From: Syntrophorhabdaceae bacterium
GTDB lineage: Bacteria > Desulfobacterota > Syntrophorhabdia > Syntrophorhabdales > Syntrophorhabdaceae
DNA: 64,000 nucleotides
NCBI GenBank assembly: GCA_963666485.2
Contig: CAXXUO010000001.1
Span: 672,001 to 736,000, forward strand
Reading direction: 5' to 3'
Position numbers: made by a program. This document shows, piece by piece, positions 27,001-30,000 of this stretch. Positions within the stretch are counted from its first letter, which is position 1. Every line of letters begins with the position of its first letter.

Positions 27001-30000
27001 GCAGGACCATTGTCTGACTGGACACACCTTTGAATGCGGGACTGCCCATATCTTCGTTGTTCCGGGGGTTCCAACCGTCCCATTGCGGCCCCCTCGCAGA
27101 TGGCGCCTTCACATCGCCGGCCAGGGCAACCGAGATGATGCACATAACAACTACTCCGAGTGTTGCGAAAAATACCATTCTTTTCATGGGTACCTCCTTT
27201 TGGCCTTGCCTGTAGTTTGTCGCGAGGCAATCATTTCGCGATATTCTACAACGGTGCCGCGGTTCATGATGTGACATATATCACATTACAGAAAAGGCAT
27301 CAAAATAAATCTGCATGCCCCGCCTGTTGTTGCGAGCGGAGCTTTTTTGCTGCAATTTTCTTGAAATCCTTCGATGAGCAAGGTAATGAATAAGTGCTTG
27401 CGCAAACAACGTTCTGAAAGGCACGCATGGAAAGCATACTGCTCAACCGGATATACGGGAAAATAAGGCCGCACCTCGCCGGTCCCGATGATCCATACCT
27501 CGTGGCATCTATCGGGGAACAAAAACTGTACGTGTGTGCCGGGAAGACGGTGACCGGGGTCTACGCGGCGTCAACGTCGCGACTCGGGGTGGGCATCAGG
27601 GAAGATTCACTGAAGACGCCGCCGGGAGTCCACCGGGTATGCGAGAAGATAGGCGCCGATGCGCCCGAGGGCCGTATTTTCAGGGACCGCGAGGACACCG
27701 GGGTAGACTGGGACCACACGTCGGACGAAGAGAACATCATACTGACCCGCATCCTTCGTCTTGAAGGGCTTGAACCGGGCATAAACCGCGGACCTGGTGT
27801 CGATACGTACGAGCGGTATGTCTACATACACGGAACGAACCGGGAGAACGATGTCGGCACGCCGTTTTCCAACGGATGCATATGCCTTCGCAACGCGGAC
27901 ATTGTCTCGTTGTTCGATCTCGTCCCGGAGGGCACGGTCCTTTACATAGACCCTCCGCCCCTCGTGATCAACGGATATCCCCTGAAGAACGTCCATTTTA
28001 CCGGCATCTTCGGGACCGGGATGAGCGCGCTTGCCCAGTACTTGAGGTTCTGCGGGATAGAGGTTTCCGGGTCCGACCGTCTTCTCGCGAGCCCCGATAC
28101 ACAGGAAATGATGGAAAGCCTGAAGCTCCTCGGCTGCGTGATCGCTCACCAGGACGGGTCCGGGGTGACGGAGGGCACGGATGCCCTGTGCATATCGACG
28201 GCGATCGAGGAAACAAACCCCGACATCGCCGCCGCACGCAGCCGCGGTATCCCGATAATTCACCGCTCGGACCTTCTCGCGGGCATAATAGCATCGAAGA
28301 GGACCGTTGCCGTCGCGGGAACGAGCGGGAAATCGACGGTCACCGCCATGATATTCGAATGCCTCGATGCCTGCGGCATGTCCCCGTCGCTCATCAGCGG
28401 GGCGCCCCTCATCAGGCTCGAGGCGGGAGGCCTTATCGGGAACGCCTATTCGGGAGGGTCTGACCTGCTTGTTGTCGAGGCCGATGAAAGCGACGGGACC
28501 CTTGCGAAATACTCGCCGGACATATCGGTGATACTCAACGTCTCGAAGGACCACAAGACGATAGAGGAGATCACCTCCCTTTTCGCCGGCCTTATCGAAC
28601 GGTCGTCGTGGACAGCAACGAACAATGACGACCCGATACTCGCGAACCTTCCGGCAACTGTCCGTTTCGGCAGGAACAGGGCCGCGGCATGGCACCCCGA
28701 CCGGGAAGACCTCCATCCTTTATCGGTGAGCCTCACGCGCTGCGGCATCGAATACCGCCTGCCCGTTCCCGGGGAACATAGCCTCGAGAACCTCAAGGCG
28801 GCCCTGTGCGTGTGCGAGCACCTCGGGTGCGGCGGCGACGCCCTTGCGCGCGCTGTCGGGAATTTCGCCGGGGTCGCGCGCAGGTTCACGATAGTTCACA
28901 CGAAAAGCGGCGTAACAGTTATCGACGACTTCGCCCACAACCCGGCCAAGATCGCGGCCGCCATTACCGCGGCGCACGGCACAGCAGACCGGCTCATCGC
29001 CGCCTATCAGCCCCACGGTTTCGGTCCGACACGGTTTCTCAAGGACGAATACATCGCGTCGTTTCAGAAAATATTCCGCCCCGGCGATGAACTCTACCTT
29101 CTGCCCATTTACTACGCTGGCGGCACCGCGCAAAAAGACATATCCTCTCAGGACATCATCGATGGACTCGGAAAAGTCCCATTCCACGCCGAAGCCGTCA
29201 AAGACCGGGATGAGCTCGTTGAAAAAATAAGTTCGAGCGCCCGGCCCGGCGACTGCGTCATCGTCATGGGCGCCCGCGATCCGTCACTACCGGCCCTCGT
29301 CAGGAAAATAGTTGATATTTTCGGTGGGGAAGAATAGTTCAAAGCGGTGCCATAGGACTTCTTTTAACTTTGAACCTTGAACTTTGAACCTTGAACCGTC
29401 TTTATTGCCTGTACTCTTTCAGAAAATCCGCCATCCTCTCCGCCACGGACTTGATCTCCTCGACGGTCGGCAGGAAGACGACGCGGAAGTGGTCGGGGTG
29501 AGGCCAGTTGAAACCGGACCCCTGCACCATCAGGACCTTTTTCTCCCTCAGGAAATCAAGAAGGAATTTTTGATCGTCATGAATGTTGTACATCTTCGTA
29601 TCGATCTTCGGAAACAGGTAGAGGGTACCCATCGGTTTCACGCTCGTGATGCCGGGTATCGCGGTAAAACCTTCATAAGCCGCCTTTCTCTGTTCATAGA
29701 GACGCCCGCCTGGGTTGATCATCTGCCGTAAGCTCTGGTATCCACCGAGTGCCGTCTGGATGGCGAGCTGGCCGGGCATGTTCCCGCACAGCCTCATGTT
29801 CGACAATATGTCGAGACCTTCCTCGATGTAGTCCTTCGCATGGCCCTTTTTCCCGCTGACGATCATCCACCCCGCGCGCATGCCGGGGATGCGGTGGGAC
29901 TTGGAAAGCCCGTTGAACGTCACGATAAAAAGCTCATTGGTCAACGAGGCGAAGGGGTAATGCTTTGCATCGTCGTAAAGGATCTGGTCGTATATCTCGT

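Follow-up and report, generated by a model that had tools for sequence, protein, structure and literature searches.

A single gene in the genome of a Syntrophorhabdaceae bacterium joins an ElsL-like YkuD domain to a complete Mur ligase, and its product is likely to be a cytoplasmic trim-and-religate enzyme of peptidoglycan recycling, in which the ligase would serve as a non-orthologous equivalent of Mpl coupled to tetrapeptide trimming. Judged by its sequence, the ligase is a member of a third clade of the MurC/Mpl family, here called clade X, separate from both MurC and Mpl. The gene lies in the window, that is, the whole stretch of 64,000 nucleotides that was analysed, and has the following features:

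27417..27421, forward strand: AAAGG, 5 nt 5' of the ATG, Shine-Dalgarno-like by sequence, with a presumed function
27427..29337, forward strand: fusion ORF of 636 aa, ElsL-like YkuD domain plus clade-X Mur ligase (ORF, Pfam, NCBIfam, homologues, AlphaFold)
27427..27492, forward strand: hydrophilic N-terminal helix, aa 3-16 (model, hydropathy)
27493..27951, forward strand: YkuD domain, aa 23-175, with motifs TPxG.H, ILTRIL.L.G.E.G.N, RYIY.HGT and S[HN]GC (Pfam, NCBIfam, comparison)
27829..27831, forward strand: His135, predicted catalytic base from its role in the YkuD family, invariant in 48 fused sequences
27877..27879, forward strand: Cys151, invariant, predicted nucleophile and presumed counterpart of ElsL Cys138 (alignment)
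27952..27981, forward strand: Pro-rich linker, aa 176-185, where a stop codon ends the YkuD gene in split orthologues (sequence comparison)
27982..29334, forward strand: clade-X Mur ligase, aa 186-636, three domains (Pfam, Foldseek, residue mapping)
28318..28335, forward strand: P-loop GTSGKS, which is GTHGKT in E. coli MurC and Mpl (motif comparison)
28924..28944, forward strand: DDFAHNP, with Mpl-like Phe-Ala and clade-specific Asn505 (motif comparison)
29008..29034, forward strand: QPHGFGPTR, with G531 and P534 at the positions of E. coli MurC R383 and R386 (residue mapping; roles from PMC3060825)
29269..29280, forward strand: GARD, with Arg617 at a MurC glycine position, a candidate replacement carboxylate ligand

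The fusion gene and its YkuD domain

The frame has no internal stop, and its start position is common to most close homologues in the alignment. Pfam places, above its cut-offs, a YkuD domain at residues 23-174 and three Mur domains at 189-617, and these domains share one chain in all of the best 120 homologues listed out of 3679 at E<=1e-3 (8000 scored). The genome-wide survey's note had counted 1299 homologues, with the best 120 at 64-94% identity; the range is here 66-93% for the best 120 listed, and its statement that all of these are fused holds. Where a taxon name is given, it is mostly Syntrophorhabdaceae. An AlphaFold model built from 48 sequences recovers both folds (pLDDT 89.4, pTM 0.90), and the one-chain architecture is thus confirmed by Pfam, by the best listed homologues and by the model. 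An origin of the fusion by artefact or read-through is ruled out by the 120 fused homologues; the matches in the host's class also speak against it, 37 of 44 having an open frame of 619-704 aa. The top Foldseek match of the model is H. influenzae MurC; in a wide structure search it aligned with MurC over 430 residues (Z 44.0, rmsd 2.3) and with full-length Mpl over 428 (Z 29.9, rmsd 4.6), while the N-terminal domain aligned with YkuD enzymes over about 120 residues (Z ~13, rmsd 2.5-2.9).

The E-values of the note for ElsL (7e-36), MurC (1e-85) and Mpl (9e-31) were reproduced, and all three matches lie below the NCBIfam cut-offs: 123.4 bits of 270 for ElsL (NF040925), 287.9 of 335.1 for MurC (TIGR01082), which a few clade-X members narrowly pass, and 107.4 of 388.7 for Mpl (TIGR01081). 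As the note had observed, the ligase scores better as MurC than as Mpl.

The YkuD domain has the fold and the predicted catalytic His and Cys of the ElsL class. The HGT...SNGC motif reported by the survey is present; the His...Cys motif occurs in all of the best 120 listed homologues, among which SNGC is a rare variant (1/120) and SHGC the common form (116/120). Stand-alone proteins of Gammaproteobacteria that the ElsL model picks out share about 40% identity, as well as motifs, with the domain. A hydropathy scan (maxima of 0.74 over 12 residues at the N-terminus and of 1.3 over 19 residues in the entire chain) together with Pfam revealed no signal-peptide-like stretch, membrane helix or peptidoglycan-binding domain, unlike the host's three other YkuD proteins, which have hydrophobic N-termini. 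Motifs, identity and the signal-less N-terminus support the assignment of the domain as ElsL-like. The cut-off of NF040925 is uninformative outside Acinetobacter, since none of 81 Gammaproteobacteria reaches it, 57 of them (one, G263, an unpublished genome used for no other result) matching at 118-207 bits. In a tree, the YkuD domains linked to clade X stand beside gammaproteobacterial ElsL-like rows, with very long outgroup branches and weak support.

ElsL is described in PMC8649774 as a cytoplasmic Cys-dependent L,D-carboxypeptidase, assayed on disaccharide-tetrapeptide and inactive as C138S. The ElsL survey in PMC8649774 selected stand-alone proteins of 105-200 aa and dropped longer hits, a size limit which the split orthologues fit and the fusion, at 636 aa, exceeds; a term search of the orthologue table in its supplement 3 returned no Syntroph-, Nitrospir- or Fibrobacter entry. 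Several gammaproteobacterial ElsL-like genes (L205, L209, L212, L217, L218, L219, L222, L227) adjoin the gene of a family-5 solute-binding protein, possibly of a peptide importer. A 628-aa frame over one gammaproteobacterial ElsL-like gene was rejected as a fusion, as it is a GC-rich open frame.

Placement and residues of the ligase

FastTree separates three groups, clade X (81 rows), MurC (29) and Mpl (33), and in a 40-row tree their SH-aLRT supports are 95, 92 and 99, respectively; the branching order of the three is not settled by the tree (AU p 0.34). The survey's description of a MurC/Mpl-like ligase is therefore retained insofar as this is a whole Mur ligase of that family, and membership of MurC or of Mpl is not, given its own clade in the trees. 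Among 150 listed representatives at 50% identity, all score best as clade X, 145 contain GARD and none has the MurC arginine motif.

Residues were compared across the best 80 of 581 clade-X genome loci. Across these, the residues that PMC3060825 names for UDP, ATP and metal are kept, and the fusion ligase itself keeps G193/G196/G198, D217, K302, E351, E354, N371, H376, N455, R486, D501 and H504. The L-Ala site is different. In H. influenzae MurC it consists of Tyr346, His348, His376, Arg377 and Arg380 (PMC3060825), which were mapped by motif order to E. coli Y352, H354, H382, R383 and R386. At these positions clade X has Phe (76/80), His, His, Gly/Ala (80/80) and Pro/Ser (80/80), and the fusion retains both histidines with Tyr, Arg and Arg replaced by Phe, Gly and Pro; E. 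coli Mpl has Phe, His, Arg, Ser and Met. The Tyr and both Arg of MurC are therefore altered at the same three positions in clade X and in E. coli Mpl, and loss of the arginines would fit a substrate whose L-Ala carboxyl is already peptide-bonded.

The fusion has Phe-Ala-His and the loss of Arg377 and Arg380 in common with Mpl. Clade X is not nested in the Mpl clade, however, and the Mpl motifs GI(C/G)GTFM, (S/T)AFFDKRSK and EPRSNT (taken from PMC3060825) are absent from the fusion, AFFDK and GTFM being found at none of the 80 loci. The clade has instead its own motifs, GTSGKS, AHN, QPHG.GP, YYAGGT and GARD, and Arg617 is invariant in 80/80.

Gene links, co-occurrence and the host pathway

Within the same 80 loci the ligase is fused to an ElsL-like domain in 22, has such a gene directly upstream in 10 and about 5 kb away in one, and stands alone in 47. 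In split loci the ElsL-like gene stops right past the YkuD domain. The fused forms do not compose a single clade (AU p 1.5e-50 on 34 rows, a test chosen after the first tree): the host's fused group falls among Fibrobacterota split operons, and alphaproteobacterial and Eisenbacteria fusions lie elsewhere in the tree.

A second, unrelated LD-carboxypeptidase is also linked to the clade. In P0308 clade X is fused to an S66 LD-carboxypeptidase (LdcA family); this fusion rests on one sequence because a metagenome scan queried directly with P0308 gave no match. Among metagenome loci, 16 of the 48 with clade X have S66 beside the ligase, vs 0 of the 32 with MurC. Two of these 16 are co-directional, possibly favoured by a query alignment that started with P0308, and 14 are divergent, possibly from one lineage, since three that were sampled form a clade. 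Moreover, a YkfC-like C39-SH3-NlpC/P60 protein is fused to clade X in P0242 and encoded directly upstream in L032, and in four further loci, three of Chitinophagaceae and one from a metagenome, an SH3-NlpC/P60 gene lies no more than about 2 kb away. Long clade-X singletons carry pseudouridine synthase, GDSL or peptide-binding domains and were left out of the evidence.

For co-occurrence, 50 of the 80 genomes were hand-picked (30 of 33 linked, 20 of 47 ligase-only); these and the following genomes are related MAGs, so that counts overstate independence, and two belong to both the locus set and the host-class set. An ElsL-like match is present in 31/31 linked genomes, host included, and in 0/20 ligase-only genomes. 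S66 shows the opposite distribution (2/30, one weak, vs 13/20), and 7 of the 20 ligase-only genomes have neither. Mpl is above its cut-off in 1 of 51 clade-X carriers vs 30 of 121 genomes of the host's phylum, and in none of three genomes of the host's family. In one Bacteroidales family of 51 genomes, clade X occurs in 15 (two divergent), and an Mpl-like gene in 3 of these 15 vs 25 of the 36 non-carriers (Fisher p 0.002, the kin not being independent). A long-branched Mpl-like clade specific to Bacteroidota, which scores below every NCBIfam cut-off, is present in Paludibacteraceae (L308-L332) and tends to exclude clade X. In the host's class 43 of 61 genomes carry the clade-X ligase, and S66 is not depleted there (12/43 carriers vs 4/18 others, Fisher p 0.76). 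Exclusion of LdcA as a general rule is thus rejected in this class, and the absence of LdcA, correctly reported for the host genome in the survey's note, is not a general feature of carriers.

The host genome, 99.14% complete, has a separate housekeeping MurC (C1:659933) and AmpG (C10:32252), both above cut-off and both as the survey had stated; canonical MurC is kept in 5/5 host-class genomes. Searches of the host genome returned no match to S66/LdcA or the Mpl family, none to AnmK, MurQ or YcjG (tblastn with E. coli proteins), and no YkfC-like cytoplasmic peptidase, its two NlpC/P60 matches having signal-like N-termini. GH3/NagZ was not found in 4/4 host-class genomes, nor M14/MpaA in 5/5. 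The ampG gene faces one for a signal-less AmiA-type (PF07313) amidase (G000:C10:32252-34592, L336), and Bacteroides AmiA frees the stem from GlcNAc-anhydro-MurNAc-peptide (PMC4600125). From its gene content the host appears to take up muropeptides and release their peptide while having no known route to degrade it, and direct re-ligation would therefore suit it. The AmiA-type gene does not track the fusion, because it is class-wide (49 of 50 host-class members, with or without fusion); it occurs in 5 of 30 other ElsL-linked genomes and near the fusion in 1 of 20 host-class loci. The host's only Amidase_2 gene (G000:C3:411119-411448, L338) lies in a group of small holin- and spanin-like genes that is probably the lysis module of a prophage; it was rejected as a recycling amidase, being prophage-lysin-like and missing in three relatives.

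There is no conserved operon around the fusion: most of its immediate neighbours have no connection with the cell wall, and the neighbours are common only to two close relatives. Convergent with it, and only in close relatives, is a PLP aminotransferase gene (window 29402-30640, reverse strand), whose best NCBIfam match, alanine aminotransferase, is below cut-off. On the same strand, 25907-26530 encodes a multi-EF-hand protein that bears a signal and matches lanmodulin weakly (60 bits against a cut-off of 135), and upstream of it 26678-27277 encodes a protein with no Pfam or NCBIfam match. Short intergenic repeats, TTGAACC runs and GTTCCACGTTCC-like repeats, lie at about 24700-25150, 29360-29400 and 30700-30830; the GTTCCACGTTCC-like repeats were noticed as repeated text in shadow ORFs. 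In Methyloceanibacter-like loci (L030, L033, L035, L039, L043, L045, L047, L052) the fusion is convergent with a gene cluster, the scanned member of which is a scaffold-plus-YkuD L,D-transpeptidase. A promoter and terminator scan gave nothing above chance, there was no listed RNA holder and no plasmid match, and ESM Atlas returned generic names only.

Proposed function and comparison with known systems

Its repeated coupling to two unrelated LD-carboxypeptidases is best explained if clade X is a whole-peptide ligase. Together with the near-exclusion of Mpl, these links favour the recycling role put forward by the survey; its further claim, that the fusion joins two consecutive steps, goes beyond the evidence, since the assayed substrate of ElsL was disaccharide-tetrapeptide (PMC8649774), so that an amidase step intervenes. 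Taking architecture, residues, clade, gene context and co-occurrence as observed, we infer the following activities, substrates and order of steps. AmpG would bring in anhydro-muropeptides and the AmiA-type amidase would release the stem peptide. The YkuD domain would take off the terminal D-Ala through a Cys151 acyl-enzyme, acting on the muropeptide, on free tetrapeptide or, as proofreading, on mis-made UDP-MurNAc-tetrapeptide. With ATP, the ligase would then join L-Ala-D-Glu-mDAP to UDP-MurNAc, bypassing MurC, MurD and MurE, with a relaxed specificity that probably admits L-Ala too. Such coupling could prevent toxic tetrapeptide precursors: the tetrapeptide toxicity of elsL and ldcV mutants is suppressed by mpl loss (PMC8649774, 10.1101/771642), so an LD-carboxypeptidase would matter most where whole peptides are re-ligated.

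Several points count against the recycling reading: the missing Mpl signature motifs, a sequence and model nearer to MurC than to Mpl, the lack of S66 depletion in the host's class, the AmiA-type gene that does not track the fusion, the seven ligase-only genomes without S66 or ElsL-like match, the links of clade X to a YkfC-like peptidase with a dipeptide product, and sole copies in Elusimicrobiota. Among 91 Elusimicrobiota genomes at least 90% complete, 60 have a canonical MurC and 31 only a 289-331-bit match, and in all 31 this sole MurC-like gene belongs to clade X, so that clade X can probably add L-Ala. In 29 small genomes (L449-L473, L286, L287, L292, L085) it ends a dapA-(lysC)-asd-dapB operon and always has a changed loop, QPH[AS]F[AT]S; the ordinary loop is found in the other two, whose genomes may be incomplete. 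MurD and MurE are above the NCBIfam cut-off in both Elusimicrobiota genomes checked, and S66 is missing in all five tested. The ligase of the fusion might then be an alternative MurC adding free L-Ala, with the invariant Arg617 providing a new carboxylate ligand in place of the arginines, and with a YkuD domain that trims separately, fused for co-regulation only; its closeness to MurC by HMM and fold and the MurC-like His504, His530 and Ala616 also point that way. We regard this as rather unlikely. The fusion does not share the changed loop of the 29 operon-linked copies, nor do the five second copies that could be read in Elusimicrobiota with a MurC of their own; canonical MurC is kept in the five host-class genomes; and a partner LD-carboxypeptidase would bring an L-Ala ligase no obvious benefit, although clade X is linked to two unrelated ones. 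Mpl too has weak activity on L-Ala and, if overexpressed, complements murC(ts) (PMC3060825); given this and the changed loop, the sole copies do not refute a peptide ligase.

That the ligase uses a dipeptide is suggested by the YkfC-type proteins fused to clade X (P0242), directly upstream (L032) or nearby in the Chitinophagaceae and metagenome loci, as YkfC enzymes cut gamma-D-Glu-mDAP (PMC4600125). These links are few vs those to LD-carboxypeptidases, and with only signal-like NlpC/P60 proteins in the host we find a dipeptide ligase improbable. It is a little less probable still that the YkuD domain is a cytoplasmic L,D-transpeptidase or D-amino-acid exchanger, or that the ligase serves a non-peptidoglycan glycan: the low ElsL score and the non-cell-wall neighbours would agree with this, but the gammaproteobacterial ElsL-like proteins with which the domain shares 40% identity and motifs are likewise all below cut-off (118-207 bits, 0/81), S66 swaps into the same gene context and the MurC-type UDP-binding domain is intact.

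A wider version of the trim-and-religate reading is offered tentatively, as falling somewhat short of probable. The MurC/Mpl family might have in clade X a third branch, widespread and recorded in databases as MurC, whose members re-ligate stem peptides in groups believed to have no Mpl (Syntrophorhabdales, Nitrospirota, Fibrobacterota, Bacteroidota, Alphaproteobacteria and others); coupling of clade X to unrelated trimming enzymes would have happened more than once, tetrapeptide product of the ligase itself would be proofread by the fused YkuD domain, and in one lineage of Elusimicrobiota a change in the substrate loop would have made clade X the housekeeping MurC. Passages of PMC13046382 hold that species without LdcA and Mpl degrade stem peptides; a third clade annotated as MurC would, if true, revise this for many phyla and may explain recycling in many bacteria without the textbook ligase. 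A one-chain enzyme would make channelling and proofreading testable in a single protein, the Elusimicrobiota sole copies and the fusion are a natural variant pair for locating what sets substrate length, and Elusimicrobiota whose sole MurC-like gene is without the L-Ala arginines would have another start to peptidoglycan synthesis. A literature search, with most subscription journals outside its scope, retrieved no paper describing the fusion or clade X; the passages of PMC11915815 on Mur-family phylogeny name 12 members, without Mpl or clade X, and the portion of 10.1101/2025.01.14.632903 that was retrieved was a false match only.

Compared with known systems, the fusion domain resembles ElsL (LdtK) of Acinetobacter baumannii as a signal-less YkuD protein with a (here predicted) catalytic Cys. 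NF040925 is its best YkuD-type NCBIfam match, the shared motifs are with gammaproteobacterial ElsL-like proteins, which were compared in place of the A. baumannii sequence, and in the 30 linked genomes the domain occurs mostly where S66 is missing; it differs in being fused to a ligase and in its score (123 bits vs 270). The LdcA family (Peptidase S66) has the same proposed reaction and, in other bacteria, is found on one chain with clade X or next to it, but its fold is unrelated to YkuD and the host genome has none. LdcA also cuts free and UDP-linked tetrapeptides. MurC is the closest match of the ligase by HMM and by fold (27-30% identity, TM ~0.85 across the MurC chain), the UDP, ATP and metal residues are common to both, and clade X apparently takes MurC's place in one Elusimicrobiota lineage; Tyr346, Arg377 and Arg380 (H. 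influenzae numbers) are replaced, and the fusion lies outside the dcw cluster and below the cut-off. With Mpl it shares the three-domain MurC-type fold, Phe-Ala before a conserved His, loss of the two MurC arginines, status as a second copy beside MurC and the LD-carboxypeptidase link, whereas clade X is separate, has GTSGKS, AHN, QPHG.GP, YYAGGT and GARD in place of the Mpl motifs, and is without GI(C/G)GTFM, (S/T)AFFDKRSK, EPRSNT and SNG. The fusion would thus act like ElsL plus Mpl, yet by the tests run it appears to be a member of neither.
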